Below are positions 3,391-60,864 of a DNA stretch of 64,000 nucleotides, piece by piece. A program made the position numbers and the translations under genes. Below the pieces are notes generated by a model. It ran no database searches. It saw only the letters and a program-made list of their open reading frames with translations, and had not been told where the DNA came from. Source of the DNA: Gemmatimonadales bacterium (GTDB lineage Bacteria; Gemmatimonadota; Gemmatimonadetes; Gemmatimonadales; GWC2-71-9); contig DATAOI010000064.1 in NCBI GenBank assembly GCA_036265815.1, positions 91,831-155,830 of the forward strand, in the 5' to 3' direction. The first letter of the stretch is position 1. Every line of letters begins with the position of its first letter.

Positions 3391-3584
3391 GGGAGATCCT
3401 CGGTTCGCGTTCGGTCGGCCAACCTGCTGCTCCCCAGGAACATAGACGAGGGGCGGCCGCCGGGGCTGTGATCCCCGTCGCCCGCCCCTGCTGTCATCCC
3501 GATCGGCGCCCTGTCACGCCCCCAGCGCAGCAATTGGGGCTCGGGACTCGGGATGGCAGTTCCGCTCCTGTCAGCGGATCCGGT

Positions 3585-15149: not shown

Positions 15150-15269
15150 TCAACACTCGTTCCGCATAGTTGACGTGGAGGAGATGGTGATCGTGCTGCT
15201 CCCACCGGTCCATCCCAGCATGGCGCCCACAAAGCCCATGCCGTGCGTGGTGGAGACCAGCACGGTCAT
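15150..15269 (-). other. 39-codon ORF duplicating the TadE C-terminus (product of the tandem duplication)
   Basis: It encodes MTVLVSTTHGMGFVGAMLGWTGGSSTITISSTSTMRNEC, against the TadE tail MTVLVSTTHRMGFVGALLGWAGGSSTITISSTSTMRNECT. Its ATG overlaps the tadE stop (ATGA at 15266-15269). Expression is unknown. Confidence 0.3.
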
Positions 15270-15388
15270 GTACACTCGTTCCGCATAGTTGACGTGGAGG
15301 AGATGGTGATTGTGCTGCTCCCACCGGCCCATCCCAGCAGCGCGCCCACAAAGCCCATTCGGTGCGTGGTCGAGACCAGCACGGTCAT
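15153..15388. repeat. tandem duplication, two 117-bp copies with a 119-bp period, of the tadE 3' end
   Basis: Copy 15153-15269 and copy 15272-15388 differ at 7 positions by my manual alignment. Confidence 0.9.
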
Positions 15389-24245: not shown

Positions 24246-24485
24246 ATGACCGATGCAGCCCGGCACAGGCACCGGGGCAGAGTTCTGCGACTGCTCTGCT
24301 GGCTTGCGCTGGTTTCAATCTTAGTACCGGGAAGCGCCCACGCCTATGTGGACCCTTCGACCGGAAGCATGTTGCTCCAGGTGCTGGTTGCCGGCGTCCT
24401 TGGCGCGGCCTTCACCGCCCGACAGTGGTGGGGGCGGGTCGCGACAGCCGTGCGGCAACTGCGGGACCGAGCGACACGCCGTTGA
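24246..24485 (+). CDS. small exported/membrane protein (signal peptide, YVDPSTGS motif, TM helix, Arg-rich tail)
   Basis: The ATG at 24246 is preceded by GGAGGGGGG. The product is MTDAARHRHRGRVLRLLCWLALVSILVPGSAHA/YVDPSTGSMLLQVLVAGVLGAAFTARQWWGRV..RR. It lies directly upstream of the LtaS-like pair. Confidence 0.5.
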   Translation: MTDAARHRHRGRVLRLLCWLALVSILVPGSAHAYVDPSTGSMLLQVLVAGVLGAAFTARQWWGRVATAVRQLRDRATRR

Positions 24486-24512: not shown

Positions 24513-26072
24513 ATGGCAGCTGACATCGGTTCAGCTCCGCCCTGGTATCCATTTCTCGCCAGCGCCTATCTCGTGGTGGCCTTGGCTGCGGCAAACGGTG
24601 GGGAACTGGTGGGCCCCGGCGATCTCCTCTGGCCGATCCTCATAAGCCTATTACTCGCCACCACAGCCTGGTTTCTCAACGGTCTGGTCACGAAGGAACC
24701 CGGCAAACGGGCCCTGCTTACGCTCGCCGCAGTGCTGGTCTTCGGGGCATCCGGTCGCGCGATCGTCGTTGTCCGCAGCTGGCCACCGGTCGCGGAGCTC
24801 GCCACGGACATCGTGGCCCTGACGCTGATCGTCATTCTTCTGGTTGCGTTCACCGATCTCGTCCGCCGCTCGTCACACTCCTTTCTCCCGACGCTCCGCT
24901 ATCTCAATCTCGTCGCGGCCATGCTGCTGTTGTGGTCCAGCGGCCAATTTATCTGGAACAACACCACCGCCAGAGACGCGCTGCCCATGAGCAGCCTCCC
25001 TCAGGCTCATGCGGAGGCAGGCCACCCACCGGACGCGAAGCCTGACTTCTTTTTCGTCATTCTGGACAAATACACCGGACCCCGAAGCCTGGCCGCGAAC
25101 TTTCGATTGGACGACACCGAGTTCCTCCAGTTCCTGGCGCACGAAGGATTTTTCGTCCCTCGGAATGCGCGGGCAAACTATAATCACACCTTTCTTGCCC
25201 TCGCGGCCATGCTGAATTGGCAATACCTGGATACGCTGGTTACCGCGTTGGGCCGTGACAACCAGAGCTGGCGAGCAGCCTACCCGGTTATAGAAGACAA
25301 TCGAGTGTCCCGCGCGCTCAAGCAGGAAGGCTACCGGTTCGTTTTCTTCCCTTCCGCTTTCCCGATGACAAAGCGTAACCGCTTCGCGGACCAGCAGCTC
25401 CCTGAGCCCACCAGTGCGTCTCGCGAATTTCAGTCGGTCTGGCTTCGAACGACACTGCTACGCCCGCTCCTCGAAGGCCTCTGCCCCCTCATCGGTTGCT
25501 CAACCGGAAAGTATGTCCCTGAGTCAGCGACGCTCATGGATTGGAAATTCCAGCGGATTGCCGAGCTCGCGGGAAGCAGAGAGCCGATCTTTGTGTTCGC
25601 CCATCTCACCGTGCCTCACGAGCCATATATCTACGATGCCATGTGCGGGCATCGCGATCCGTACATACCGGAAAGGGACGACGGCCCCGAAGCGTCTCGG
25701 GTTGTGGCGGCGTACGTGGACCAGGTCAAGTGCACCAACCAGCGGGTCGAGCGTCTGGTGACGGATATCCTCCATCGGGCACATCGGCAGACGATCATCA
25801 TCCTGCAAGCGGACCACGGGCATGGGCGCATGGGCCACGATCAACCCGCCTTGAAGGACGCTTTGCCCTGGCAAGTAGCCGAGCGAACGGACATCTTCGC
25901 GGCGTACTACCTGCCCGATCATCCTGCAGGGTTGCTCTCAGACTCCATCGGTCCCGTCAATGCGGTCCGGGCCATCATGCGGCATTACTACCGGTTGCCG
26001 CTGCCCCCATTGCCCGAGCGGACCTTCTGGTCCTCCTCCCACCATCCGTACGCCTTTACGAGGATCAGGTGA
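24513..26072 (+). CDS. membrane-anchored sulfatase/alkaline-phosphatase-superfamily enzyme (LtaS/EptA-like transferase), paralogue 1
   Basis: It has 4-5 N-terminal TM helices. The catalytic domain carries metal-ligand contexts DFFFVILDKYTG, NYNHT, FVFAHLTVPHEPY and ILQADHGHG. Confidence 0.75.
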   Translation: MAADIGSAPPWYPFLASAYLVVALAAANGGELVGPGDLLWPILISLLLATTAWFLNGLVTKEPGKRALLTLAAVLVFGASGRAIVVVRSWPPVAELATDIVALTLIVILLVAFTDLVRRSSHSFLPTLRYLNLVAAMLLLWSSGQFIWNNTTARDALPMSSLPQAHAEAGHPPDAKPDFFFVILDKYTGPRSLAANFRLDDTEFLQFLAHEGFFVPRNARANYNHTFLALAAMLNWQYLDTLVTALGRDNQSWRAAYPVIEDNRVSRALKQEGYRFVFFPSAFPMTKRNRFADQQLPEPTSASREFQSVWLRTTLLRPLLEGLCPLIGCSTGKYVPESATLMDWKFQRIAELAGSREPIFVFAHLTVPHEPYIYDAMCGHRDPYIPERDDGPEASRVVAAYVDQVKCTNQRVERLVTDILHRAHRQTIIILQADHGHGRMGHDQPALKDALPWQVAERTDIFAAYYLPDHPAGLLSDSIGPVNAVRAIMRHYYRLPLPPLPERTFWSSSHHPYAFTRIR

Positions 26073-33656: not shown

Positions 33657-34441
33657 GGAGTCTCCAGCACCGACTCGGCCGCGTCATCATATGGGGTGAT
33701 GCGCGGCCGATCGTATTCCCCTTTGAGACAGTTGGTTCGGATCGCGACGAGATCGGCCGCCATCCGGATCGAGTCCCGCACCACCCGAATCTTGGAGCCG
33801 GGCTGGTGCACCCAGTTGATGGGCACCTCGGCGACCCGGTAGCCTCGCCGCTGAGCCATCAAAAGCAGCTCGACATCGAAGCTGAAGCCCTCCATTCGCA
33901 TGCGGGAAAAGAGGTCGTGTGCGATAGACCCTCGAAAGAGCTTGAAACCGCACTGAGTGTCGCGGATGCCTTTCACGGTGAGCAGCTCGACTAGGCCATG
34001 AAATGTGCGGCCCATGACGTGGCGGTACCAGCGGCGCTGGACTCGCACGTCGGCCCCGGGGACGCTGGCCCGCGACCCCACGGCCACATCGCTGCCTTCC
34101 TCCAACGCGCGCTCGAGACGTTCGATCTCGGCAATGGGCGTGGCGCCGTCAGCATCCGCGACCAGCACGCAGGCGCCCCGGGCGTTGACGACGCCGGTCC
34201 GCACCGCGTAGCCCTTGCCGTGATTCTGAGCCAGACGGATCAGACGCAGCTCGGCATACCTGCGCGACAGCGAGTGGACGACCGCGCTGGTACCGTCCCG
34301 GCTGCCATCGTCGACCACGATCATCTCCGCCGATGTTTCCCGGCAGCGGAAGTACTCCACCATCTCCAGGAGCGTGCGACGGAGGCGCAACTCCTCCTCA
34401 TAGGCGGGGATGATGACGGAGACCGCGGCGGAATCTCTCAT
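33653..34441 (-). CDS. GT2 glycosyltransferase (dolichyl/polyprenyl-phosphate beta-glycosyltransferase-like)
   Basis: It has VSVIIPAYEEE, IVVDDGSRDGT and the DxD motif VADADGATP. I chose the ATG at 34441; the track ORF starts at 34465. Confidence 0.85.
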   Translation of the reverse strand: MRDSAAVSVIIPAYEEELRLRRTLLEMVEYFRCRETSAEMIVVDDGSRDGTSAVVHSLSRRYAELRLIRLAQNHGKGYAVRTGVVNARGACVLVADADGATPIAEIERLERALEEGSDVAVGSRASVPGADVRVQRRWYRHVMGRTFHGLVELLTVKGIRDTQCGFKLFRGSIAHDLFSRMRMEGFSFDVELLLMAQRRGYRVAEVPINWVHQPGSKIRVVRDSIRMAADLVAIRTNCLKGEYDRPRITPYDDAAESVLETP

Positions 34442-39869: not shown

Positions 39870-39995
39870 GGCAAGGGCGGTAAAGACGGTGAGGTCGGTA
39901 AGGGCAGTACGGGCGGCAAGGGAATCCCATGCCTGCACTTACGAACCTTACCGCCCTTCCCGTCCTTACCGCCCTTGCCGTCCGCCCTTCCGTCC
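39865..39995. repeat. palindrome built from variant GGTAAGG/GGCAAGG/GGGAAGG units
   Basis: The G-rich arm is 39865-39922 and the C-rich arm is 39946-39995 (ccttaccgcccttcccgtccttaccgcccttgccgtccgcccttccgtcc). Confidence 0.75.
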
Positions 39996-40115: not shown

Positions 40116-42287
40116 ATGTCGTCCCAGCCAACCCGCAGCAATCCCAGCCGCGCTCTGCCCGCGCTCGCCCATGCGCCCGGCGGACCACTGGAGCTCGAAC
40201 GGCCGAAACCCACACTGGTCCCGTCCGAGCCGGCGCTGCCGCCGGTGGCGCGCGCCGCGGCGCGGGTCGACACGGTGCACGGCGAGGTGCGGATCGACGA
40301 GTACTTCTGGCTCCGCAATCGCGAGGATCCCGAGGTCCTCGCCTACCTCGAGGCGGAGAACCGCTACACCGAAGCGATGATGCGGCACACCGAGCCGCTG
40401 CAGGAACGGCTCTTCCGGGAAATGCGTGGGCGGATCAAGGAGACCGACCTCTCGGTGCCGGAACGGCTCGACGGCTGGCTCTACTACTCTCGCACCATGG
40501 AAGGGGCGCAGTATCCCATGCTATGCCGCCGCCCGGCCGCGGAGGGGGACGCCACGGACGACGGCGCCGAAGAGGTGCTGCTGGACCAGAATCCGTTGGC
40601 GGAGGGGCACGCCTACTTCCGGTTGGGCACTCATGAGGTGAGTCCGGATCACACGCTGCTGGCCTATGCCGTCGACACCAGCGGCGCGGAGGCGTTCACC
40701 CTTTACGTCAAAGACCTGGCGACCGGCGAACTGCTGGCAGAGACCATCGGCAACGTGTCGCCCAGCGTCGCCTGGGCCAACGACAGCCGGACTCTGTTCT
40801 ACGTGGTGCTGGACGAGGCGCGCCGGCCCTGCCGACTCTACCGCCATCGACTGGGGGAGAACCCGGTCGAGGACGTGCTGGTCCACTTCGAGCCGGACGA
40901 GGCCTTCTTTCTCGACATCAGCCGGAGCGGCAGCCGGGAGTACCTGCTGCTCGACCTGGGCAGCCACTCTACCTCCGAGGTCCGCTATGCCAGCGCCGAC
41001 CGTCCGGAGGAGTCGTTCCGGGTGGTCGAGCCGCGCCGCGCCGGCATCGAGTACACCGTGACCCACCACGGCTCCCGCTTCCTGATCACCACGAACGACG
41101 ACGCTCCCAACTTCCGCCTCGTCTCCGCCCCGGTGGAGAACCCCGGCAAGGCGGCGTGGACCGAAGTCCTGCCACACCGGCCGGCGGTCAAGCTGGACTC
41201 GACCGATGCGTTCCGCGATCACTTGGTGGTGTACGAGCGGGAGGCGGGACTGCGCCAGATCCGCGTGCTGCCGCTCGCGGGCGGCGCGTATCTCATCCCC
41301 TTCCCCGAGCCGGTGTACACCATCCGGCAGCACGAGAACCCCGAGTTCGACACCAGTCTGCTCCGCTTCTCCTACACCTCGATGGTCACGCCCAACGCTG
41401 TGGTCGACTGGGACATGGCGGCGCGCACCTGGACCGTCCGGAAGCAGACCGAGGTGTTGGGGGGCTACGACCCGAGCCAGTACCGGACCGAGCGGCTCTT
41501 CGCCACGGCGCCGGACGGCGAGCGAGTGCCGGTGTCCCTGGTCTACCGGCTGCCGCTGGCGCCGGGCGAGCGGCGGCCGCTCCTGCTCAACGGCTACGGC
41601 GCCTACGGGGTGAGTTTCGACCCGGCGTTCTCCTCGAGCAGCCTGTCGCTGCTCGACCGGGGGTTCATCGTGGCAATCGCCCACGTGCGCGGGGGCGAGG
41701 AGATGGGGCGGGCCTGGTACGAGGGGGGGAAGCTGCTCAAGAAGCCCAACAGCTTCACCGACTTCATCGCCGCCGCCGAGCACCTGATTGCCGCCGGCTT
41801 CACTTCGGCCGACCGGCTGGTGGTCACCGGCGGGAGCGCGGGCGGTCTCCTGATGGGTGCCGTGGCCAACCTCCGGCCCGACCTGTTCCGCGCGGTGCTG
41901 GCCGAGGTGCCGTTCGTGGACGTGGTGAACACCATGCTGGACGCCACGCTGCCGCTCACGGTGATCGAGTACGACGAGTGGGGCAATCCCAACCACCCCG
42001 CGGCGTACGCCTGCATCCGCTCCTACTCGCCGTACGACAACGTGGAGTCCAAGGACTATCCCCACATGCTGGTGACGGCGGGCCTCAACGACCCGCGGGT
42101 GGCCTACTGGGAGCCCGCCAAATGGACGGCCCGCCTCCGGGCCCGCAAGACCGACGGCAACCGACTGCTGCTCAAGACCAACATGGGCGCGGGGCACGGC
42201 GGCGCGTCGGGACGGTGGGATTATTTGCGGGAGGTGGCGTTCAAGTACGCGTTTGTGCTGGATGTGGTGGGGATGGGGGCAGGGTGA
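40116..42287 (+). CDS. ptrB: oligopeptidase B / S9A prolyl oligopeptidase family serine protease
   Basis: It has an N-terminal beta-propeller pattern (DEYFWLRNREDPEVLAYLEAEN) and the catalytic Ser context GGSAGGLLMG. The C-terminal GAGHGG carries the His. The exact start is uncertain. Confidence 0.9.
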   Translation: MSSQPTRSNPSRALPALAHAPGGPLELERPKPTLVPSEPALPPVARAAARVDTVHGEVRIDEYFWLRNREDPEVLAYLEAENRYTEAMMRHTEPLQERLFREMRGRIKETDLSVPERLDGWLYYSRTMEGAQYPMLCRRPAAEGDATDDGAEEVLLDQNPLAEGHAYFRLGTHEVSPDHTLLAYAVDTSGAEAFTLYVKDLATGELLAETIGNVSPSVAWANDSRTLFYVVLDEARRPCRLYRHRLGENPVEDVLVHFEPDEAFFLDISRSGSREYLLLDLGSHSTSEVRYASADRPEESFRVVEPRRAGIEYTVTHHGSRFLITTNDDAPNFRLVSAPVENPGKAAWTEVLPHRPAVKLDSTDAFRDHLVVYEREAGLRQIRVLPLAGGAYLIPFPEPVYTIRQHENPEFDTSLLRFSYTSMVTPNAVVDWDMAARTWTVRKQTEVLGGYDPSQYRTERLFATAPDGERVPVSLVYRLPLAPGERRPLLLNGYGAYGVSFDPAFSSSSLSLLDRGFIVAIAHVRGGEEMGRAWYEGGKLLKKPNSFTDFIAAAEHLIAAGFTSADRLVVTGGSAGGLLMGAVANLRPDLFRAVLAEVPFVDVVNTMLDATLPLTVIEYDEWGNPNHPAAYACIRSYSPYDNVESKDYPHMLVTAGLNDPRVAYWEPAKWTARLRARKTDGNRLLLKTNMGAGHGGASGRWDYLREVAFKYAFVLDVVGMGAG

Positions 42288-42321
42288 GGCAAGGTGGGGC
42301 AAGGTGGGGCAGGGTGAAGGG
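42280..42321. repeat. solo G-rich decamer array
   Basis: The sequence is cagggtgaggcaaggtggggcaaggtggggcagggtgaaggg. The ptrB stop (TGA 42285-42287) lies in its first unit. I found no complementary arm downstream. Confidence 0.75.
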
Positions 42322-42403
42322 AACGCCGCTGTTCCGAGCACCGGGTGTCATTCCGAGGCCGTTTTGATGCGCTCAGGGTAGATGCCGCGAAGGAGGCGCG
42401 GCG

Positions 42404-43780
42404 TCACGGACGACCTGCAAACCTCCATGCATTTGGCGCCGCGCTTTCACTTCGAGAGGGCGCCTCTGGATCAGCCCCACCTCTCTCCTCCCCTCCGATC
42501 TCGACCTTCGTGATGTCCGGCCGAAAGAACAGCGCCACCGTCCAGTCGAGGACGATCCGCAGCCGCCGGTCCCACCGCGGCATCTGCAGCAGGTAGTACG
42601 TCCGCCGGAACCACCAGGCCGGGAAGCCCGTGAGCCTCACGCGCAGGACCTGGGCCACCGCCCGCGAGTGGCCCAGCGAGGCCATGATTCCGAGCCCCCC
42701 GAACACGAATGGCGTCGGGCTTCGCCCCTGGACGGCGGCGGCCACGTTTCGCGCCACCTGTCGAGCCTCCCGGACCGCGTGCTGCGCGAGCGCCGGATAG
42801 GGGCGGCCGTCCGGTCCTGGAATCGCGGCGCAATCGCCCAGTGCCCACACCTCGGGATGACTCCGGCTCCGCATGGTCCCGTCGACGTCGATCCGGCCCC
42901 GCCGGTCGTGCGCCACCGGGATGCGGGTGGCGGCCGCGGTCGGCACGGTCCCCGCCGCCAGGACTACGGTCTCCGTCTCGAGCGTCGCGTCCGCCAGGTG
43001 GATCCGCCCCGGCTCGATCGCGCGCACCGGCGTGGAGGCCCGGATGTCGGCACCCCGCCGCTGGAGCACCCGCATGGCCACGGCCGCCAGCTTCGGGTCG
43101 ACTTCCGGCAGGATGCGCTCGGTGGCCTCGAACAGGTGGAACCGCAGCTCCTCGCGCCGGAGCCGCGGATAGTAGCGCAGGACGTCCTCGGCGAACGCGG
43201 TGAGCTCGCCCAACAGCTCGACCCCCACCAGGCCTCCGCCGATCACGACGAAGGTGAGACACCGTCGCCGAAGCTCGGGGTCGGCGGCCGCATCAGCGCG
43301 CTCGAACTGCTCGATCACATGGTTCCGGAGCAGGAGCGCGTCCGCCATCGTCTTGAAGGTGAAGGCGCGCGGCGAGCCCGGGATCAACGTCTCGTTGGTC
43401 TCGGCGCCGAGCGCGACGACGAGCTGGTCGTAGGGGAGCTCGCGGGCGCCGTCGCCCGCCATGGCCCGGACTACCCGCCGCTCGACGTCCACCTGCTCGA
43501 TCATGGCCTCCAGGAAGCGCACCCGGCGCAGGGTGGGACGGACGGGCTGCGCGCAGTGCCGCAACTCCAGCCGCCCGGAGCACGCCTCGAACAGGAGGGG
43601 CGTGAGTACGAAGAAGTTGTCCCGGCTCACCAGGGTGATCTCGACTCCCGGCCGCCCTCGGAACAGCCGGTCCAGGTGGCGTGCGGCCGCCAGCCCGCCG
43701 AATCCGCTGCCCAGCACCACGATCCGGGTCGTCGCCCGGCCGTCACCATTCCCGCTGTTCGTTGCTTTACCTGCGCTCAT
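42404..43780 (-). CDS. ndh: type II NADH dehydrogenase-like FAD/NAD(P)-binding oxidoreductase
   Basis: It has two dinucleotide-binding motifs (IVVLGSGFGGLAAA and VVIGGGLVGVE). I chose the ATG at 43780, which has a GGAGGGA Shine-Dalgarno upstream. The track ORF up to 44041 is over-extended. Confidence 0.8.
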   Translation of the reverse strand: MSAGKATNSGNGDGRATTRIVVLGSGFGGLAAARHLDRLFRGRPGVEITLVSRDNFFVLTPLLFEACSGRLELRHCAQPVRPTLRRVRFLEAMIEQVDVERRVVRAMAGDGARELPYDQLVVALGAETNETLIPGSPRAFTFKTMADALLLRNHVIEQFERADAAADPELRRRCLTFVVIGGGLVGVELLGELTAFAEDVLRYYPRLRREELRFHLFEATERILPEVDPKLAAVAMRVLQRRGADIRASTPVRAIEPGRIHLADATLETETVVLAAGTVPTAAATRIPVAHDRRGRIDVDGTMRSRSHPEVWALGDCAAIPGPDGRPYPALAQHAVREARQVARNVAAAVQGRSPTPFVFGGLGIMASLGHSRAVAQVLRVRLTGFPAWWFRRTYYLLQMPRWDRRLRIVLDWTVALFFRPDITKVEIGGEERGGADPEAPSRSESAAPNAWRFAGRP

Positions 43781-44206
43781 ACATCCCTCCGCTGTCCCGG
43801 TCTCGCTCCCGGCCCGCGGGCCCGGCGGGACTCGCGTGCTGACGTCTCTCGCTAAAAATATCGCCCCGCGCCACGGCAGCGAAGCGGAGCGCCGGGCTGT
43901 CGACGTGGCGAGCTGATTGCCGCGGCTGTCATCCCGAGGAGCGCCGGCGACGAGGGAGCTACAGCCCCGGGAGGGGCTCGAGCGGCAGCAGCGCGCCGAT
44001 GAGCCAGAACGGGAGCGAAAGGGCCACCACCAGGAGGACAAATGCCAGCGGCCGCCTGCGCTCCTCTCCCGGCTCGTCGCTATCCGCCGCGTAGCTCGGC
44101 ATGGCGGTGAGACGCTGGGGGTCGGCGGGCGCGTCGACCAGCGCCGTCCGAGGTAGATTGGGATGAGGTCTCCACCAAGGCGATGCGCTTTCAGGAGGAA
44201 CCGAGG

Positions 44207-44479
44207 ATGGCCAGAAACGAGAAGCCTGCCGCGAAGGCGGCCAAGCGCGTGAAGAGCAAGGCGGCCAAACGCGTGCGGAAGACAGCCGAGCTGGTGCGCG
44301 CCAGAGGGAAAGTGCTGGCGAAACGGGTCTCCAAGAAGCTCACGGGGAAGGCGAAGAAGCGAACCAGGGCGAAGGTCGCCGCTGCCGCCGGCGCCGCCGC
44401 CGTAGCCGCCGTGGCCGGTGTGGCCGTCGCCCGGAAACGGAAGCGGAAGAAGGGGGGGTGGCTGAGGAAACTAGGGTAG
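44207..44479 (+). CDS. small Lys/Ala-rich basic protein with C-terminal hydrophobic segment
   Basis: The ATG at 44207 follows AGGAGGA. The product contains KAAKRVKSKAAKRVRK repeats, an AAAAGAAAVAAVAGVAVA segment and a KRKRKKGG tail. Confidence 0.45.
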   Translation: MARNEKPAAKAAKRVKSKAAKRVRKTAELVRARGKVLAKRVSKKLTGKAKKRTRAKVAAAAGAAAVAAVAGVAVARKRKRKKGGWLRKLG

Positions 44480-44486
44480 CAGAGAC

Positions 44487-44570
44487 AGGGTGAGGCAAGG
44501 TGAGGCAGGGTGAGGCAAGGGCTCCCTGCCCCACCCTGCCTCACCCTGCCCCACCTTGCCACCTTCACCT
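44487..44570. repeat. decamer-array palindrome (short loop)
   Basis: The G-arm is 44487-44521 and the C-arm is 44524-44570, giving an almost loop-less hairpin. Confidence 0.85.
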
Positions 44571-44581
44571 GAGCATGCCCC

Positions 44582-45091
44582 ATGATGACCCTTTCCCCGG
44601 GCACCCGCTTCCCCGAGCTCCAGGCACGGGCGGTCGACGGCAGCACGCTTCGGATTCCCGAGGAGCTGCAGGGGATCACCGCCGTGCTGCTCTTTTACCG
44701 CGGCCACTGGTGAAGCCACTGCCGTCAGCAGTTGGCTGACTTTCAGCAGCACTTTGCCGAGTTCAACGCGCTGGACGTTCAGATCGTGGCGCTCTCGGCG
44801 GACAGCGAGCAGGACGCCTGGGAGATGACCCAGCGGCTGGGGCTCTCGTTCACCGTGCTCCACAGCCTCGATCCAGAGGCGACCTCCCGCGCGATCGGCT
44901 GTTACGCCGGCACTCACGACGGCCGCCCACACATTCAACCCGCCGACTTCATCCTCGCGCCCGACGGGACCATCGTGCACGCGGTCTATTCGAGCGGCAA
45001 GGTGGGCAGGCTGACGGCGAATGACGCGCTCACGGTGGTGGGGGAGGGTGGGGCAAGGTGGGGCAAGGTGAGGCAGGGTGAGGCAGGGTGA
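44582..45091 (+). CDS. peroxiredoxin-like (AhpC/TSA, PRX_like2-type) protein with in-frame TGA at the active-site Cys position; candidate selenoprotein, or else a nonsense pseudogene
   Basis: The frame runs from ATG 44582 (MMTLSPGTRFPELQARAVDGSTLRIPEELQGITAVLLFYRGHW) through TGA 44711-44713. It continues in the same frame as SHCRQQLADFQQHFAEFNALDVQIVALSADSEQDAW...FILAPDGTIVHAVYS. The combined 169-aa length and the motif order match Prx-like W-C-P-x-C proteins. Confidence 0.55.
44719..44746 (+). promoter_or_regulatory. candidate bacterial SECIS-like hairpin
   Basis: The fold is CUG-cc-GUCAGC-AGUUG-GCUGAC-uuu-CAG. The 6-bp stem is 44724-44729/44735-44740, with a 3-bp extension. The apical loop contains GU and starts 19 nt after the U of the UGA. 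Confidence 0.4.
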
Positions 45092-45147
45092 AGGAACGCG
45101 CTCCTCGTCTCACCCTGCCGCACCTTGCCCCACCTTGCCCCACCTTC
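45044..45147. repeat. decamer-array palindrome (short loop)
   Basis: The G-arm is 45044-45094 and the C-arm is 45108-45147. It lies between convergent gene ends and contains both stop codons. Confidence 0.85.
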
Positions 45148-45874
45148 AGTACCCCAATTGCTCATCCCATTCCCCTGGCCGCCCTTCCCGGGTGAAATCG
45201 AACAGGTTCCAGAGCGGTTCCAGCGTGCCGACGTGGCGTGGGTCCTGGCCGGGATCAGTCGGGGCGTAGAAGAGCTCTGAGCTCCAGAAGTGGCGGATCT
45301 CCGCGCCCTGGCGGTGGAACACGGTGAGCATCGGCCGCTGCGATCCCCCCGCGGTCTCGGCGAGGTAGTCGCGGTTGTAGGAGTTGGCGGCCGAGCTCAG
45401 GAGCCGGAGGCGGCGCCAGTCGCGCTCCTGGGCGAAGGTCAGCAGGCGTGTCAGCGGCGCCTTGGCGACGACGGCGAAGTTGAGGTGCTGACTGGCGTGC
45501 TCGACCGCGCCATCCAGCTGGTCGAGCAGCGCCACGCACGAGGGGCACGGGGCCTCCGCCAATGGCAGCCGCGCCGTCCGGCCGGCCGGTGCTCCCGGCC
45601 GCGCATCGCCGGGGTCGCGGGGGAACATGAAGCTGTAGATCACCAGCGAATCCTTGCCCGGCGCAAATAGCTGGGACATCCGCACCGCGACCGGAGCACC
45701 ATCGGCACCCGCGCCCGCAAAGACGTAGTCCTCCGGAACGACCCCGCCGGGCGGCAGCTCGCGCCTTGCGGCCGCCACCGCCTCCATCGCGTGGCGGAGC
45801 TCGATCTCCATCCGCAACAGCCGGTCGCGCGCGGTGCGGTATTGCGGGGACTCGTTGGGGAAGGTGACGGGCAT
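45146..45874 (-). CDS. DUF899 thioredoxin-fold protein
   Basis: I chose the ATG at 45874 (MPVTFPNESPQYRTARDRLLRMEIELR...). The CPSC motif and the ...FWSSELFYAP...PLWNLFDFT pattern are typical of DUF899. Confidence 0.75.
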   Translation of the reverse strand: MPVTFPNESPQYRTARDRLLRMEIELRHAMEAVAAARRELPPGGVVPEDYVFAGAGADGAPVAVRMSQLFAPGKDSLVIYSFMFPRDPGDARPGAPAGRTARLPLAEAPCPSCVALLDQLDGAVEHASQHLNFAVVAKAPLTRLLTFAQERDWRRLRLLSSAANSYNRDYLAETAGGSQRPMLTVFHRQGAEIRHFWSSELFYAPTDPGQDPRHVGTLEPLWNLFDFTREGRPGEWDEQLGY

Positions 45875-45892
45875 GAGTTGAGGCTCCGGGGA

Positions 45893-46010
45893 AAGGTGAG
45901 GCAGGGTGGGGCAGGTGGGGCAGGGTGGGGCAAGGTGGGCACGGCGCTCAACGACTGGGTATGTTGCCTTCACCCTGCCCCACCCTGCCCCATCCTGCCT
46001 CACCTTACCC
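45893..46010. repeat. decamer-array palindrome with conserved long loop
   Basis: The G-arm is 45893-45940, the loop is 45941-45966 (acggcgctcaacgactgggtatgttg) and the C-arm is 45967-46010. Confidence 0.85.
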
Positions 46011-46811
46011 CCCTACCTCCGGCACCCCGTACTGCCGCAAGATCCGTTCGATCTCCGCTCGCCGGCGCACGAGCGCCGCGTCGAGCTGGTTTCGGAGTGT
46101 GGTATCCTCCCGCCGTACCCCCAACGAGATCGCGAAGGTGAATGGGAGCCCCGGCGGGTCGATGGCGGGCTTCACCGGCGTGAGCGTCATCGGCACCTTC
46201 TCCCGGCTACCGAAATAGCCGGCGAACGGACCCCACACGATCGCCACGTCGACGTCGCCCCTGGCCACCGCGTGGATCAGCTCGGCCGGCGGGTTGGGCT
46301 TGGAATAGTCGCCGTACAGGCTGTAGCCGACCACGTTCTCCGCGATGTGGCGCCGGCCCAGCGCGTGGGCCGGGGGCGGGTTGGTGTAGTCGTCGCCGAT
46401 GAAGTGGATCCCGATGCGGACCCGCCGGAGCGCCGGGTCGTCCAGCGATTGGATCCGGAGCCCCCGGTCCCGCCGAGTGAGAAAGACGTAGGTCGATGTG
46501 TAGTACGGCCGAGTGGTGAGGACACGGTCGCTCCCCACGGGCATCCCCATGATCACATCGCAGCGGCCGGCACCGAGCGTCTTCCTGACAAAGCCGCGCC
46601 ACTGCGGAGCCCAGGTGAACGCCAACCGCGCGTGGAGCTCATCCGCCATCAGGGCGGCGATCCGATCCTCGAAGCCCTCACCGCGTCGGTTGGAGAACGG
46701 GAGATTGTTGGGATCCGCGCAGACGCGAAGCGTGCGTATCGCCGGTGGCGGCGCCACATCGGCCCACCCGGCCAGGAGCATCGCGGCGAGCACCGGCATC
46801 GCCAGTTTCAT
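46005..46811 (-). CDS. periplasmic substrate-binding protein (family 3; quinoprotein-dehydrogenase-associated MoxJ-like)
   Basis: It has a signal peptide. The pattern LRVCADPNNLPFSN..GFEDRIAALMA...CDVIMGMP...RPYYTSTYVF is typical of the MoxJ/TIGR03871-like SBP family. Confidence 0.7.
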   Translation of the reverse strand: MKLAMPVLAAMLLAGWADVAPPPAIRTLRVCADPNNLPFSNRRGEGFEDRIAALMADELHARLAFTWAPQWRGFVRKTLGAGRCDVIMGMPVGSDRVLTTRPYYTSTYVFLTRRDRGLRIQSLDDPALRRVRIGIHFIGDDYTNPPPAHALGRRHIAENVVGYSLYGDYSKPNPPAELIHAVARGDVDVAIVWGPFAGYFGSREKVPMTLTPVKPAIDPPGLPFTFAISLGVRREDTTLRNQLDAALVRRRAEIERILRQYGVPEVGG

Positions 46812-46864
46812 CGCTGAAGTAGACGGCAGAGAGCGTTCTCGGAGCGGTGATGCAGGTCACGGGG

Positions 46865-46940
46865 GAGGGTGGGGCAAGGTGGGGCAGGGTGAGGCAGGGT
46901 GAGGCAGGGTGGGGCAGGGTGAGGCAAGGTGAGGCAGGGT
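46865..46940. repeat. long solo G-rich decamer array (about 7.5 units) upstream of the four-helix-bundle gene
   Basis: The sequence is gagggtggggcaaggtggggcagggtgaggcagggtgaggcagggtggggcagggtgaggcaaggtgaggcagggt. Confidence 0.85.
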
Positions 46941-46994
46941 TGGTTGGGCGGTGGATTGCTTACGGGACTGGGGTGGATCCAATGATCTTGGAGT

Positions 46995-47372
46995 ATGTCT
47001 CCGCCCTATGAGAGGCTCGCAGCGTGGCGGTTCTGTCATGAGCTTGCGCTCAGGTCGCGGGAGTTCACCAAAGGATGGAGCAAAGAAGACAGCTGGTTGG
47101 GGAGCCAGATACGCCGGGCTGCCTTCTCCGCCGCGGCGAACATGGTCGAGGGATCCACTAAGCGAGGTCCTCGCGAGTTCCGGCGTTATCTCGACATCTC
47201 CCTCGGCTCGCTTGCGGAGCTCGAATACGCCTTCCGATTTGCCTGCGACGCAAAGATCGAGTCGGACCTACCCTGGGATGACATCAGGACTCTGCGGAAC
47301 CGAGCCCACGGAACCACGCGGCTGCTCTACAACACGATAAGTGACAAGGTGAGGCAGGGTGAGGCAAAGTGA
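46995..47372 (+). CDS. four-helix-bundle protein (23S rRNA intervening-sequence protein family, Avd-like fold)
   Basis: 125 aa. The pattern WRFCHELAL...LGSQIRRAAFSAAANMVEGSTKRGPREFRRYLDISLGSLAELEYAFRFA matches the conserved core of TIGR02436-type proteins. The stop codon lies inside a repeat unit. Confidence 0.85.
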   Translation: MSPPYERLAAWRFCHELALRSREFTKGWSKEDSWLGSQIRRAAFSAAANMVEGSTKRGPREFRRYLDISLGSLAELEYAFRFACDAKIESDLPWDDIRTLRNRAHGTTRLLYNTISDKVRQGEAK

Positions 47373-47449
47373 GGCAAGGGGCTGTGAGCGAGTGGGTGTG
47401 TTGCCGTTACCCTGCCTCACCTTGCCCCACCCTGCCCCACCTTGCCTCC
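47346..47449. repeat. decamer-array palindrome with conserved long loop
   Basis: The G-arm is 47346-47380, the loop is 47381-47409 (gctgtgagcgagtgggtgtgttgccgtta) and the C-arm is 47410-47449. Confidence 0.85.
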
Positions 47450-47452
47450 CTT

Positions 47453-47995
47453 TCACGACGCCAACGCCACGTAGCTCGGAAGCGCCCGGAGGCGCCGTAC
47501 CCGGTTCAGATGGTGCGCGTCGCGCCGCTCGAGGAAGCCGAGTCCTTCGAGTGTGGTGAGCCAGCCGACGACCGGGTGGCGGAAGAAGGGACGGGAGAGG
47601 TCCTCCGGTCCCATGAGCCCGAGCACGGCGCGGAGATTGGCGCGGGCGCGGCTCCAGCGGACCTCGAGCTGCCCCAGGCTGCTGCCGCCCGACGGCAGAG
47701 TGCCCGGCGCCGCGGCGCGGAGGCGGCTGCCCCGCGCGAAGCTCAACGAAAGCAGCGGCAGCACCACGGCGGCGCGGGCGCTGTCGGCCAGGCTGCGGGT
47801 CGGAGGACGGTCAGGAATGCCGCGCAGCACCTCCTCCTCGGCCAGGACGAGATGCTCCACCAGGTCGAGCGCCGACCAGCTCCCGGGCGCCGGATGGAAG
47901 ACCAGGCGTCCCGGCGTCATGGCGTTGAGCTCGCGCAGCATGGCGGCGCGCTGCCGCTCCAGGCGGTTGAACCGGCGCTCGAGTTGGCGAAGCAT
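47453..47995 (-). CDS. DinB-family (DinB_2) four-helix metal-binding protein
   Basis: 180 aa. It has WSALDLVEHLVLAEE and a C-terminal HHLNRV, typical of the DinB superfamily His triad. Confidence 0.65.
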   Translation of the reverse strand: MLRQLERRFNRLERQRAAMLRELNAMTPGRLVFHPAPGSWSALDLVEHLVLAEEEVLRGIPDRPPTRSLADSARAAVVLPLLSLSFARGSRLRAAAPGTLPSGGSSLGQLEVRWSRARANLRAVLGLMGPEDLSRPFFRHPVVGWLTTLEGLGFLERRDAHHLNRVRRLRALPSYVALAS

Positions 47996-49912: not shown

Positions 49913-50512
49913 ATGGCCAATCAGGGATCCATCAAGCGGCTCTGTGTCTTCTGCGGGACCAACACCGGCGCCCGCCCGGAATACGCGGCGGCCGCCCGAC
50001 AGCTCGGCGCGCTGCTGGCGGAGGAGGAGATCGAGCTGGTCTACGGCGGCGCCAGCGTCGGCATCATGGGCGACCTGGCCGATGCGGTACAGGAGGGCGG
50101 CGGACACGTGACGGGCATCATCCCCCAGCAGCTCATCCAGAAGGAGGAGGCCCACCGCGGCATCCCCGATCTCATCGTGGTGGCATCGATGCACCAGCGG
50201 AAGTCGCAGATGGCCGACCTCTCCGACGGTTTCGTGGCACTGCCGGGGGGGATCGGCACGCTGGAAGGGTTCTTCGAGATGCTCACCTGGGGACAGCTCG
50301 GCATCCACGCCAAACCGTGCGCGATTCTCAATGTGGCGGGCTACTTCGAGCTGCTGTCGCGGTTCCTGGACCACGCCGTGAAGGAAGGATTCCTGACCGA
50401 GACCCACCGGGCCACCATCATCGTGGAATCCGATCCACGCCGACTGCTGGAGCGGCTTCGGGCCTACACCGCGCCGACGGGGGCGCCGCTTATGGGACGG
50501 TCGAATAGGTGA
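49913..50512 (+). CDS. LOG family protein (TIGR00730; cytokinin riboside 5'-monophosphate phosphoribohydrolase-like)
   Basis: It has CVFCGTN, YGGASVGIMG and the PGGIGTLEG motif. I chose the ATG at 49913; the track ORF starts at GTG 49880. Confidence 0.85.
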   Translation: MANQGSIKRLCVFCGTNTGARPEYAAAARQLGALLAEEEIELVYGGASVGIMGDLADAVQEGGGHVTGIIPQQLIQKEEAHRGIPDLIVVASMHQRKSQMADLSDGFVALPGGIGTLEGFFEMLTWGQLGIHAKPCAILNVAGYFELLSRFLDHAVKEGFLTETHRATIIVESDPRRLLERLRAYTAPTGAPLMGRSNR

Positions 50513-50621
50513 GGGAGGGTGGGGCAAGCTGGGGCAAGGTGGGGCAGAGTGAGGCAGGGGTGGTGAGCGACAGGGGGTGTTGCCTCACCTTGCCTCACTC
50601 TGCCCCACCCTGCCTCACCTT
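50508..50621. repeat. decamer-array palindrome with conserved long loop
   Basis: The G-arm is 50508-50559, the loop is 50560-50581 (gtggtgagcgacagggggtgtt) and the C-arm is 50582-50621. It contains the stop codons of both convergent genes. Confidence 0.85.
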
Positions 50622-51860
50622 GTATGCTTGTTTTTCCGGCGTCCAGCCCGCCAGCTCCGGATCGGGCGGCAGCAGCAGCGGCGACGGTCCCCGCATCGGG
50701 AAGCGGGCCTTGAGCCGGAGGAACGGCTGCTCCCACGCATGCCAGGAGACCAGAGCTACGACCGCTGAGACAGCGAGCATCATCCCCGTGAAGATCGCCT
50801 GCCCCAGGAGTTGCGAGCCCGCCCGCTGGGCGAACCAGGGCACGTCGAACCCCAGCAGCACCACCAGACCCATCAGCAACGGATGGAGCACGTAGAGTCC
50901 GTAGCTCAACCGGCCGAAGAAGCCGAGCACACGGCTGCGCCATAGCCGGCCGAACAGTGACCCCGCGGGAGCTGTGAGCGCGCCGGCAAGGAGCGCAGCG
51001 CAGGTGAGGGCGAGGAGCGGGTAGCCGATGGTCAGCATCCCCAGGGACCCCACCACCGGTCCCTGGGCAGTGGCGACTATGACCGTGACACCGACGGAGC
51101 CCACCACCAACACCGGACGGATTCCGGCCCTGAGCCACTCGAGTCCCCCCGGCTCGCTTGCCACCAGGGCGAGCCAGGCACCAGCGGCCAGAGGGTCGAG
51201 GTGGGCAGGGGTAAGCACGTAGGAGACCACTCCCGGTTGCCCCAAGCCACGAAGGGTCATGCGGAGCACGAAACTTACCAGAACGGCGCCAAGGCAGACG
51301 GTTTTGAGGCGCTCCCGCGACAACAGCCACACGACCAGCGGCCACACCAGGTAGAACTGCTCCTCGACTGCCAGCGACCAGAAATGTTCCAGCTCGAAGC
51401 TGGTGTTCCAGGAGCCCGCCAGCACGATCCTCACGTTGGCGAGGTAGCTCCAGTACCAGCCCTGGCTGTGCAGGAGATCCCGGGTCCGTTCGGCCCCCAA
51501 AAGATGGAGATGGGGAAGGCCGACAAAGACCAGCAGAAGGCTACCGTAGTACAGCGGAAAGATCCTGAAAGCGCGCCGCAGATAGAAGTTGCGGAAAAAC
51601 CGCTGCCCCCCCTTGGCCTCCAGCAGGATGCCCGTGATGAGAAAGCCCGACAGGACGAAAAAGAGGTCCACCCCGAGCCATCCAGTGGCCGCAACGCGAC
51701 TCAGCTGGCGTTCGAATGGATTGGTCGGCTGGAGGCGCATGAAATGCGCGAACAGGACGGGCAGGATGGCCAGGCCCCGCAGCCCGTCCAGGGCTGGCAG
51801 GTGACCGGACAACCTGGATACGGCTCGGGAGGTGGCCATCGAAGGCGCAAACCGAGGCAA
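50595..51860 (-). CDS. acyltransferase family 3 (OafA/YrhL-like O-acyltransferase) membrane protein
   Basis: About 10 TM helices. The N-terminus LPALDGLRGLAILPVLFAHF and the FFVLSGFLITG motif are characteristic of acyltransferase_3. Confidence 0.85.
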   Translation of the reverse strand: MPRFAPSMATSRAVSRLSGHLPALDGLRGLAILPVLFAHFMRLQPTNPFERQLSRVAATGWLGVDLFFVLSGFLITGILLEAKGGQRFFRNFYLRRAFRIFPLYYGSLLLVFVGLPHLHLLGAERTRDLLHSQGWYWSYLANVRIVLAGSWNTSFELEHFWSLAVEEQFYLVWPLVVWLLSRERLKTVCLGAVLVSFVLRMTLRGLGQPGVVSYVLTPAHLDPLAAGAWLALVASEPGGLEWLRAGIRPVLVVGSVGVTVIVATAQGPVVGSLGMLTIGYPLLALTCAALLAGALTAPAGSLFGRLWRSRVLGFFGRLSYGLYVLHPLLMGLVVLLGFDVPWFAQRAGSQLLGQAIFTGMMLAVSAVVALVSWHAWEQPFLRLKARFPMRGPSPLLLPPDPELAGWTPEKQAYKVRQGGAE

Positions 51861-55692: not shown

Positions 55693-56640
55693 ATGACAGC
55701 ACTCAGCCGCCTGCTCGAAGGCAGCATCGACTACGCGGGGCTGTTTCCCCCCGCCGCGCTGGAGCTCGGGGCCGCCGTCCGGCAGTACGCCTCGTACCGG
55801 GACGGCGAGCAATCGTGGGCGCTGGGGCGGTTCGTCATTCCGGTGTCGCGGCTGTCCGAGCTGGAGGCGAGCGCGGCCGGGCTGATGCCACCGCAGCCCT
55901 CGGAGCGGCCGTGGCGGCTCACGGCACTCGTCGGACTGGACACCGCCGCCGACGCGCGTGTCGTAGGTGAGTTCAACTGTCGCCATGCCGCGCACGGCGC
56001 GCCCGGCGCCGTCACCGACGCCATCGAGGCGAAGGCGGACACGGTGGCGGCAGTCGATCGCCTGCTCGGCTCGGTCCCGGACTATCTCCAGACCTACGTC
56101 GAGATCCCCATCACCCAGGATCCGACGCCGCTGGTGGAGGAGATCGCCCGCCACGGTGAGCGGGCCAAGGTCCGGACCGGCGGGATCACGGCCGCTGCCT
56201 TTCCGACCACCGCGGACCTCGCCCGCTTCATCCGGGTCTGCGCCGAGGCGAACGTGCCGTTCAAGGCGACGGCCGGGCTGCACCACGCGCTTCGCGGCGA
56301 CTACCCGCTGACCTACGCGCCGGACAGCTCACGGGGCCGCATGTTCGGCTTCCTCAACGTCTTTCTGGCCGGCGCCTACGCGCTGGTCGGCATGGACGCC
56401 GCCACCCTGAAGCACCTGCTGGAAGAGACCTCCCCTGCCGCCTTCGACGTGACGGACGACGCCATTACCTGGCGGGGACACCGGCTCGACCTCGGGGCGA
56501 TCCGGCGCGCGCGCGAGCTAGTGGTGGCGTTCGGGTCGTGCTCGTTCACCGAACCAACGGAGGAAACGGCAAGGTGGGGCACGGTGGGGCAGAGTGAGGC
56601 AAGGTGGGGCGCGGGGAAGCATGGTGAGGCATCGCTATGA
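55693..56640 (+). CDS. hypothetical protein
   Basis: The ATG at 55693 begins the plausible part (MTALSRLLEGSIDYAGLFPPAAL...AKVRTGGITAAAFPT...FKATAGLHHALRG). I recognised no domain. The last 20 or so codons run into the repeat. The upstream part of track ORF 54247..56640 is antisense to the ALDH gene. Confidence 0.55.
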   Translation: MTALSRLLEGSIDYAGLFPPAALELGAAVRQYASYRDGEQSWALGRFVIPVSRLSELEASAAGLMPPQPSERPWRLTALVGLDTAADARVVGEFNCRHAAHGAPGAVTDAIEAKADTVAAVDRLLGSVPDYLQTYVEIPITQDPTPLVEEIARHGERAKVRTGGITAAAFPTTADLARFIRVCAEANVPFKATAGLHHALRGDYPLTYAPDSSRGRMFGFLNVFLAGAYALVGMDAATLKHLLEETSPAAFDVTDDAITWRGHRLDLGAIRRARELVVAFGSCSFTEPTEETARWGTVGQSEARWGAGKHGEASL

Positions 56641-56703
56641 GCGGTCGGTTGTGTGTCCCTGAGACCCTCACCCCTGCCCCACCCTGCCTCACCCTGTCAC
56701 CTT
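56568..56703. repeat. decamer-array palindrome (degenerate, long loop)
   Basis: The G-arm is 56568-56630, the loop is roughly 56631-56664 (contains atgagcggtcggttgtgtgt) and the C-arm is 56665-56703. Confidence 0.75.
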
Positions 56704-58026: not shown

Positions 58027-58360
58027 TGGGGACCAAACCCCGGCGAGCCGCAGCTTTTCTGGCTGGAGCTTCGGCCAAGGTGTGGTTGGATCTTCGGGCT
58101 CCGGCGGGAGGCGGTGCTCCCGGAGCGCGCCTCAGTGACTGCGGCTCCACCCCGAACGCCGCGAAACGATCGATGCAGGCACTGCTCGCGCGCGGAGGGA
58201 GCATCGCCTCCCGCCGGAGCCGTGGACCCGGAGAATCGCTTCCGGCCCACGCCCGAGGAGCGGGGATGCCACGGGACGAAGCCGACCCGCGGCGTTACGC
58301 GGGGGGCTCAGGCTGCGACCCCGGCCCGCCCTCCAGCGCCGACCTCAAGCCGGTGATCAA

Positions 58361-60485: not shown

Positions 60486-60736
60486 TGGGGGCGGAGATCG
60501 GGGGGTGGTGGCGGAGATCGGTGGGGTGGGGGCGGTGGGGGCCGCGCTGGTACAGTGGTGGGCGCAACAGCGTTGCGCGGTGGTCGGACCGGACGATGCC
60601 CGCCGGCAACCCGTGCTCGGGCGCAGGCGGCGGGCGGGGATCGCGGAGGGAGTCAGGCCGTGTGATGCCGGTCTAGCTCCGTGCCCTCCGGGGCGGCCTG
60701 TTCTGACCGGAGCGAGCCCCGCCCGCCGCCGGAGCC

Positions 60737-60792
60737 GGCGCCCCGATCCCGGCGCCCCGATCCCGGTGCCCCGATCCCGGCGTCCCGATCCC
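60737..60792. repeat. 4 x 14-bp tandem repeat GGCGCCCCGATCCC
   Basis: The units are 60737-50, 60751-64, 60765-78 and 60779-92, with 1 mismatch in units 3 and 4. Partially complementary GGAGATCGGGG motifs occur at 60492-60525. Confidence 0.85.
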
Positions 60793-60864
60793 GTCCGCAG
60801 CCGGAGGCGACGCCCTGATTGCAAACCTAGAGGCCGGCAAGCCGAGTAGAATGGCCGACGGGTC

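Follow-up and report, generated by a model that had tools for sequence, protein, structure and literature searches.

A candidate IVS-type hairpin cassette outside rRNA: an S23p/Avd-like gene enclosed by complementary decamer arrays in a Gemmatimonadales genome

Intervening sequences (IVSs) of 23S rRNA are located in helices 25 and 45 of that molecule. A mobile origin has been proposed for them, but to our knowledge never demonstrated. In Leptospira, Coxiella, Xanthomonas and Brucella, they enclose an S23p ORF within a stem formed by their own ends. Crystal structures are available for the S23p/IVS protein family, and a homopentamer is established for 2GSC, 2RLD and Avd, the family member found in diversity-generating retroelements (DGRs). 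Avd is also the only member for which we know of a function, a question that has stood since the early 1990s. Classical IVSs replace rRNA hairpin loops, and the Coxiella IVS, which is excised by RNase III, carries GACAGAT tandem heptamers of variable copy number upstream of its S23p ORF (PMC4990558). In the Avd pentamer, all five protomers bind an 11-bp RNA stem-loop via the same residues, and this stem-loop lies downstream of avd, in the spacer after the template repeat (10.1101/2023.10.23.563531).

The second group of sequences relevant here is that of the short tandem repeat families. We take the cyanobacterial STRR (Mazel 1990) to be in the same class, also in view of our loci L098-L100. 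In X. campestris, GGGAATC is present at 186 sites, with 70 convergent pairs; these repeats form quadruplexes in vitro, and their function was left unexplained (PMC4692102). The supplement of that study puts repeat #15 between bccP and XCC0516, uncommented (PMC4692102).

The locus described here lies in a 64-kb stretch of Gemmatimonadales DNA (the window; G+C of 66%). It is flanked by an SBP_bac_3 gene on one side and a DinB gene on the other. TRF and ORF calling delimit the following parts:

46866-46940, no strand assigned: G-arm 1, the outer 5′ arm of the gene-enclosing hairpin (TRF: period 10, 7.5 copies of GGTGRGGCAR)
46941-46994, plus strand: 54-bp spacer between G-arm 1 and the start codon, containing CCAATGATC
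46995-47372, plus strand: PF05635/TIGR02436 gene, an ORF of 125 codons plus stop
47345-47379, no strand assigned: G-arm 2 (TRF: 3.5 decamers)
47380-47408, no strand assigned: 29-nt loop of the gene-bearing element
47409-47448 (TRF end 47446/8), no strand assigned: C-arm, 3.8 copies (about 4 decamers) of YTGCCYCACC

This is the order of parts that a first-pass annotation, made from the letters alone, had proposed, and every one of them was recovered. The annotation was also right that the gene runs into the second G-arm, since its final 8 codons (KVRQGEAK) and stop are read from within 47345-47379. The C-arm ends 4 nt short of the stop of the DinB gene, which is on the other strand. The C-arm can pair with the inner part of G-arm 1 at 95% complementarity over 40 nt (47409-47448), and with G-arm 2, with which it forms a local hairpin, at 89% over 35 nt (47410-47444). 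When the whole element is folded as RNA, G-arm 1 and the C-arm close around the gene (-305.6 kcal/mol, z = -5.5), and an outer stem likewise closes the gene in the element of a related locus, L005 (z = -6.4). Given the length and complementarity of the arms and the closure seen in the fold, the ends of the element are predicted to pair as a stem around the S23p ORF, as the ends of a 23S IVS do. Unlike a 23S IVS, for which a site in rRNA is the defining property, the element lies outside rRNA: an Rfam scan of the window returned no match, hence no rRNA. It differs as well in having arms that are long arrays of short tandem units (7-10 nt across loci) and in having probable gene-less derivatives dispersed in intergenic DNA.

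The assignment of the gene to the S23p / 23S rRNA IVS protein family of four-helix bundles, for which the annotation had asked for a profile search, is secure. In an HMM search, the 125-aa product exceeds the curated cut-offs of both PF05635 (E 2.2e-18, 66.9 bits; cut-off 33.8) and TIGR02436 (E 3.9e-18, 65.7 bits; cut-off 24). An AlphaFold2 monomer model (pLDDT 89) has helices at residues 5-25, 30-55, 59-85 and 94-124. By Foldseek, the closest structures are, in order, XCC0516 (2GSC; TM 0.82-0.90), BT_0352 (2RLD; 0.63-0.81) and the homologous four-helix bundle of DGR Avd (0.57-0.79), and sequence similarity is highest to the non-DGR members 2GSC and 2RLD. The R-x3-S-x3-N-x2-E motif previously reported for the family (PMC3936711) is present, with R41, S45, N49 and E52 invariant in the alignment. 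Pairwise comparison of the three genes with decamer-type arms (window, L005 and L007) gives dN/dS values of 0.08-0.12 at dS 0.7-1.3; judged by these ratios, the protein is under strong purifying selection, unlike Coxiella S23p, which is reported to be decaying. No second PF05635 gene was found in the 64-kb window. PHROGs searches gave no match for the gene and neither did PADLOC, so it is not a recognised defence gene. Given that no reverse transcriptase (RVT domain) is present among the called neighbours within 10 kb, the element does not appear to be a DGR; repeat scans run for other purposes showed no pair of long, nearly identical direct repeats in the gene's vicinity.

The decamer recurs well beyond the element. 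Its two-unit pattern, GGTGRGGCARGGTGRGGCAR, occurs 41 times in the window as opposed to 0.02 times expected from shuffles, and the arrays make up eight loci in the 64 kb, seven of which are convergent pairs. The loci other than the gene-bearing element are as follows, none with an assigned strand:

1709-1785: gene-less decamer hairpin with a short unrelated loop (TRF; 27-nt arms, 100% complementary)
42278-42317: orphan G-arm of 4 decamers with no C-arm nearby, overlapping the stop codon of a peptidase S9 gene (TRF)
44482-44560: gene-less decamer hairpin with a 3-4-nt loop (TRF)
45037-45146: gene-less decamer hairpin with a short unrelated loop (TRF; 39-nt arms, 95% complementary)
45888-46011: gene-less decamer hairpin with a homologous loop at 45940 (TRF, loop alignment)
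50509-50622: gene-less decamer hairpin with a homologous loop at 50558, between convergent genes (TRF, loop alignment)
56568-56696: gene-less decamer hairpin with a homologous loop at 56632 (TRF, loop alignment)

The first-pass annotation lacked the first four of these (1709-1785, 42278-42317, 44482-44560 and 45037-45146). As short intergenic tandem arrays, mostly in convergent pairs, the decamers can be placed with the short tandem repeat families, albeit with a period of 10 instead of 7. They share with Xanthomonas GGGAATC and Nostoc/Anabaena GGGGAYT the short tandem unit, the mostly intergenic position and the frequent occurrence as hairpin-capable convergent pairs (PMC4692102). Apart from the period, the difference from those heptamers is that arrays in the window bracket a gene. 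The four loops at 45940, 47380, 50558 and 56632 align as homologues, with a sum-of-pairs score of 110 versus 67.8 +/- 6.0 for shuffles, none of 2000 of which reached 110; the loop similarity noted in the annotation thus withstands the statistical alignment test set for it beforehand. Around the gene, a stretch of 8.2 kb holds six of the eight decamer loci (p about 0.004 in a post hoc test).

The closest homologues of the window protein are P0004 (80% identity; L005/L006, between amylase genes) and P0003 (77%; L007). Both loci have the same decamer as the window, with the G-array upstream and the C-array downstream of the gene, and the three genes lie in unrelated genomic contexts. More distant loci, at 31-60% identity, were taken from a genome scan (14) and a metagenome scan (73). 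For each, the 260 nt upstream of the gene were compared with the reverse complement of the downstream region, and a score of at least 14 was counted as a hit; control positions of identical geometry, placed elsewhere in these loci (n = 1333), had a mean of 9.8 and a 99th percentile of 14. Inverted tandem arrays surround the gene in 66 of the 83 testable loci, compared with 1% of control positions. Because the same decamer brackets homologues in other contexts, and because of this excess over controls, the placement of the gene within a hairpin is not due to chance. Most of the non-hits are truncated genes (L020, L075, L078, L080, L089), near-threshold loci with visible arms (L011, L064, L014, L050) or members of a divergent subfamily, comprising at least L087, L088 and L093, in which long CGGCCC hexamer arrays flank the gene; in L087, two convergent genes lie between direct hexamer arrays.

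The repeat period in the arms is 6-12 nt, in most cases 7-10, with 4 units per arm as the median, and the units are specific to lineages: they include AAGGGCGGTC, GGAGGTTGGT, GGCGGTAA, GGGCGGCGSA and GGCTAGCT, and further GGACGGCA, CTAGKCGT, GGACAGAR, GCAGACGC, GCAGAGTT and CGGCAGTC. When 15 representative loci are compared in a cross-pairing matrix, own arms score 32.8 on average (minimum 22.5), while arms of other lineages average 9.5, which is background; pairing between loci is confined to the same unit family. By this comparison, the arms covary at the level of the whole array, the unit turning over between lineages while the arms of each locus stay complementary. The upstream arm is richer in G than in C in all 58 distinct loci.

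Across the loci compared, PF05635 genes conserve this layout in at least four phyla: Gemmatimonadota, Cyanobacteriota, Pseudomonadota (Xanthomonadales, Azospirillum) and Bacteroidota. The annotation's claim of a family gene inside a non-rRNA hairpin holds well beyond this copy, as independent homologues in other contexts and phyla have the same gene between inverted arrays. Plasmid examples, in which the genes are annotated as 'S23 ribosomal protein' or 'four helix bundle protein', are:

Nostoc edaphicum plasmid: (AGTRGGG)x8 and (CCCTACT)x5, antisense, between two ribonucleotide reductase (RNR) genes
Calothrix plasmids: AGGGTGT units in one strain, TTAGCTG in another
Pseudanabaena plasmid: bracketed gene between cas6 and cas4
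Gemmatirosa kalamazoonensis plasmid: arms GAGGGCAG
Azospirillum lipoferum plasmid: arms GAGGACG/GACAGAG
Riemerella anatipestifer plasmid: arms GGTTYAA

The copy on the gamma plasmid of Nostoc PCC 7120 has heptamer arrays on both sides, which are not complementary. In Xanthomonas and Rhodanobacter, the gene found between accB and accC is an orthologue of XCC0516, and its arms are of the GGGAATC/GGGATTC type, either (CGGGAAT)x4.4 with (CCCATTC)x4.3 or (CGGGATT)x4.3 with (AATCCCG)x3.9. The Xanthomonas and Nostoc heptamers have been described as quadruplex formers, without a link to a protein, yet XCC0516 orthologues are flanked by exactly the GGGAATC-type unit. The Xanthomonas genome thus has the same pattern as the window, a single hairpin with the gene alongside many arrays of that unit without it. 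A literature search covering other than subscription sources found no description of PF05635 genes linked to flanking tandem arrays. What is new here, as far as this comparison goes, is an IVS-type cassette that lies outside rRNA, has short-tandem-repeat arms and seems general across phyla.

The window copy is itself not typical. The second G-arm is missing from L005 and L007, whose proteins keep an ancestral RRIESQKSRRHT-like tail. Given that these relatives retain the ancestral C-terminus, the second G-arm is derived in the window copy, and the annotation's proposal that the layout with two G-arms is the full-length form does not stand; the canonical form is G-array, spacer, gene, C-array. 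The segment comprising G-arm 2 and loop (47345-47402) is a secondary replacement, in which the left half of a local-type, gene-less hairpin has taken the place of the last ~12 codons of the gene. Within the loop (47380-47408), the left 25 nt are similar to the sequence with which the L005 spacer begins, and the right end, CCGTTA, equals the post-stop junction of L007; the junction CCGTTACCCTGCC is common to the window copy and L007. In Gemmatirosa the order is mirrored (G-arm, loop, C-arm 1, gene, C-arm 2), and the arrangement in Pseudanabaena is similar. Such split-arm composites are the expected product if a segment of gene plus array integrates into an arm of an existing hairpin, and they would be poised for deletion between the duplicated arms, as the annotation had proposed.

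Two related loci bear on the origin of the gene-less hairpins. In L016, an orthologue of the intact L012, the gene is gone from about residue 79 up to the C-arm; in L089, codon 10 has changed from TGG to the stop TGA, and a deletion fuses codon ~60 to the C-array. As these are truncated intermediates in place, internal deletion can yield gene-less hairpins, and the elements decay towards them by this route. Of the first 25 nt of the L005 spacer, 19 are matched by the loop at 47380 (E6; p = 0.008), and since this is the only one of 12 comparisons to reach nominal significance, the homology of gene-less loops to the spacers of full-length elements is suggestive. The annotation had derived the gene-less hairpins from recombination between the two direct G-arms. 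Its notion of deletion derivatives is supported by L016, L089, the loop homology and the composites, while the specific route through G-arms 1 and 2 is a plausible future deletion of this copy and not the demonstrated origin of the others. Given that four dispersed hairpins have a common loop, movement or repeated insertion is still needed.

We also considered a rule by which gene-less hairpins at a locus always have the same unit as the gene-bearing arms. It holds in the window, Xanthomonas and Nostoc L100, and fails in L012/L016, L005 and the Gemmatirosa region, where nearby gene-less hairpins have the units GGAACGC, CACGAAG and CGCAGAGGA, respectively.

On balance, we lean towards reading the element as an IVS-type hairpin cassette outside rRNA, in which an S23p/Avd-like gene is enclosed by complementary short-tandem arrays, here of GGTGRGGCAR. 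Counting against this reading are the differing units of nearby gene-less hairpins in several genomes, the unpaired arrays of the Nostoc PCC 7120 gamma plasmid copy, the direct hexamer arrays of L087-type loci, and the failure to find an empty site or a target duplication. A transcript across both arms would form a stem of ~40-50 bp around the ORF, and by analogy with the 23S IVSs this stem could be a substrate of RNase III. The protein would be a pentamer like XCC0516, BT_0352 and Avd. By its homology to Avd, that pentamer probably binds the periodic repeat stem, and a stem of ~4-5 units would be a natural ligand for a ring. Such binding would tie the protein to the arms around its own gene as well as to gene-less hairpins built of the same unit, which may be non-autonomous derivatives persisting at the 3′ ends of genes. 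The arrays could also act as portable homology during spread, with recombination into and out of them producing the split-arm composites of the window and Gemmatirosa.

A broader proposal, which we put forward tentatively, is that PF05635 pentamers may be sequence-specific partners of tandem-repeat hairpins, with the gene and its arms forming an autonomous selfish unit that seeds and maintains genome-wide repeat families (GGGAATC in Xanthomonas, STRR-like heptamers in cyanobacteria, decamers in Gemmatimonadales); 23S IVSs would then be the subset that landed in rRNA hairpins. The association as such links two unexplained things, the PF05635 protein family and the short tandem repeat families. 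If the protein binds or propagates the repeats around its own gene, the function of S23p and that of the short repeats (STRR, GGGAATC) would merge into one testable question, with a direct biochemical assay for a protein of the S23p family. It would also explain how IVSs reached rRNA helices, and would define a new class of small hairpin cassettes inserting within operons (accB-accC, RNR, cas loci). In practical terms, such arrays break metagenome assemblies and give neighbouring ORFs repeat-encoded tails.

Among the competing explanations, the one that fares best limits the mobile unit to spacer and gene, which would insert into the loops or arms of tandem-repeat hairpins already present in the host (23S helices 25 and 45 being one such target), so that the arms are host sequence. 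It is compatible with the split-arm composites in the window (G1, gene, G2, loop, C), Gemmatirosa (G, loop, C1, gene, C2) and Pseudanabaena, with an arm unit that is the genome's own gene-less hairpin unit in the window, Xanthomonas and Nostoc L100, and with the substitution of rRNA hairpin loops by classical IVSs (PMC4990558). We nevertheless consider it rather unlikely. In Xanthomonadales, the accB-accC insertion carries both arms into a site that leaves only about 17 nt before and about 45 nt after the called ORF; the loop of E6 is similar to the internal ends of full elements of the L005/L007 type, as that of a deletion derivative would be; truncated intermediates exist in place; and in several genomes nearby gene-less hairpins carry other units.

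It is unlikely, too, that the element is purely cis-acting and non-mobile, its arms forming a stem, for processing or termination, by which a small gene between other genes is insulated, and the gene-less hairpins being independent 3′-end terminators arisen from a slippage-prone repeat. Such a role is hard to reconcile with homologues of 77-80% identity in three unrelated contexts, with a homologous loop common to four dispersed hairpins, with the clustering of copies around the gene, or with the insertion of family genes inside operons, at cas loci and antisense between RNR genes, as reported earlier (PMC3936711) and seen at the loci here. It does have in its favour that the gene-less hairpins begin a few bases from stop codons, between convergent genes, and that the element has been kept at one site over long divergence in the tRNA-Thr, accB-accC and L012/L016 orthologous groups.

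A further explanation takes the G-rich arrays as formers of a G-quadruplex or another DNA-level structure, to which the link with the gene is secondary. In the decamer array, GGGG/GGG tracts are separated by 1-2 nt, GGGAATC repeats do fold into quadruplexes in vitro (PMC4692102), and in every case the coding strand carries the G-rich arm upstream of the gene. However, what is conserved is the complementarity of the arms and not the presence of G-tracts, and several unit families (TTAGCTG, GGTTTAA, GCTTTTA, GGCTAGCT, CTAGKCGT) are unable to form quadruplexes, which renders this account highly improbable. Lastly, hairpins are dense in the gene's part of the window, but that an ordinary gene came to lie among abundant REP-like hairpins by chance is scarcely credible when the same bracket is found in 66 of 83 related loci and in four phyla, as against 1% of control positions.

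The repeats resemble REP/BIME sequences and MITEs in being short, palindromic and intergenic, in lying at gene ends, and in that the gene-less hairpins are possible non-autonomous derivatives of a coding element. The element has no further likeness to REP elements and MITEs than that of a palindromic intergenic repeat. It is distinct in that its arms are tandem micro-repeats rather than a unique inverted repeat, and in that its protein is not a known recombinase. No RAYT or other transposase is present among the called genes in ~10 kb to the right of the element, and no target-site duplication is evident at the element junctions. Orthologues of the DinB neighbour (L095-L097, 79-85% identity) yielded no clean filled/empty pair of sites; they have no decamer arrays, and a different gene adjoins DinB. 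By this comparison, the segment 42278-47448 is lineage-specific. Contigs L001-L004 are essentially identical in sequence, and no variation in repeat number was seen between them; three contigs carrying the window gene stop in or just beyond G-arm 1.

Concerning the forces that keep the arms matched, mismatches in the arms show no wobble bias (80 G.U in sense RNA versus 72 in antisense, with 174 transversions). Selection for pairing at the RNA level is therefore unsupported, and a DNA-level process could keep the arms matched. Between the window, L005 and L007, the spacers have diverged to noise at dS 0.7-1.3 while the decamer unit is unchanged. Hence, the sequence of the unit, and not pairing alone, is constrained or homogenised.

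With regard to expression, a scan of 46600-47700, including the 54-bp spacer, gave no consensus for a sigma-70 promoter or a terminator. An AAATGGT-like motif recurs in the spacers, and the CCAATGATC of the window spacer resembles the AAATGGT/AATGAT motif in those of its relatives. This motif could be a promoter inside the hairpin and, if so, the 5′ arm would lie outside the mRNA. Like the lack of wobble bias, it argues against an account at the RNA level alone. For the tRNA-Thr group, the G-arm begins about 20 nt past the tRNA, which suggests that the element there is co-transcribed with a stable RNA.

When the window is compared with L095, a relative whose DinB neighbour is orthologous to that in the window, homology breaks off precisely at two stop codons, that of the peptidase S9 gene (42287) and that of DinB (47453). 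By this comparison, the 5.2 kb between the two stops (42278-47448) is lineage-specific; L095 carries two YCII genes at the same position. The segment contains an NDH-like gene, a Lys-rich ORF, an AhpC fragment, a DUF899 gene, an SBP_bac_3 gene and the four-helix-bundle gene. It is bordered by the orphan G-arm at one end and by the C-arm at the other, and most of its gene junctions carry a decamer hairpin or arm.

The repeat arms also encode the ends of neighbouring ORFs. In the window, arms supply the final codons of three ORFs, those for peptidase S9 (42285-42287), the AhpC-like fragment (45037-45091) and the four-helix-bundle protein (47345-47372), and in the related loci L009-L011, P/S/T-rich tails are contributed by the C-arm.

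In three metagenome contigs with the identical gene (L001, L003 and one further contig), the sequence stops within G-arm 1 or shortly beyond it, so the arrays disrupt short-read assembly. Elements that combine a four-helix-bundle gene with such arrays are likely to be under-represented in MAGs.

An AAATGGT-like motif recurs in the spacers of 15 relatives (L007, L009, L010, L012, L013, L024, L031, L033, L041, L043, L045, L060, L065, L066 and L076), and its counterpart in the window lies at 46980-46988, only ~12 nt from the ATG. Its role may be that of a promoter element or of an RNA motif. As for tRNA neighbours, one orthologous group (L010 2804-2876, L011, L024, L028 and L031) has a tRNA-Thr(CGT) gene followed from ~20 nt on by the G-arm. 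L018 (2746-2819) has a tRNA-Ile(GAT) gene with a terminator-like hairpin, and then the four-helix-bundle gene.

The locus L087 differs from the usual inverted bracket in that its arrays are direct: 30-44 hexamers CGGCCC, with CGGCAAA interspersed (1913-2139 and 3437-3705), flank two convergent four-helix-bundle genes that are divergent in sequence. Similar hexamer arrays lie upstream of the four-helix-bundle gene in L088 and L093.

Tandem-unit hairpins also occur without an attached four-helix-bundle gene. A second family in the window (39870-39979 and 1868-1901), with arms of 45 nt that are 80% complementary, is built of units GGGCGGTAA / CCTTACCGC, similar to those that other Gemmatimonadales (L013, L022 and L060) carry around their four-helix-bundle genes. 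The Gemmatirosa kalamazoonensis plasmid (L105) has several gene-less hairpins (24319-24410, 25894-25962, 33674-33750 and 34261-34336), whose nonamer units, CGCAGAGGA / CCTCTGCGG and ACAGGATGA / CATCCTGTC, differ from the octamer around the four-helix-bundle gene of the same plasmid.

Finally, the window holds further repeats, the first of which is unrelated to the decamer elements:
15153-15388, tandem duplication of 119 bp, 2.0 copies, 94% identical
58097-58221, inverted repeat with arms of 34 nt
60486-60535, tandem repeat of 20 nt, 2.4 copies
60735-60793, tandem repeat of 14 nt (CCGGCGCCCCGATC), 4.2 copies
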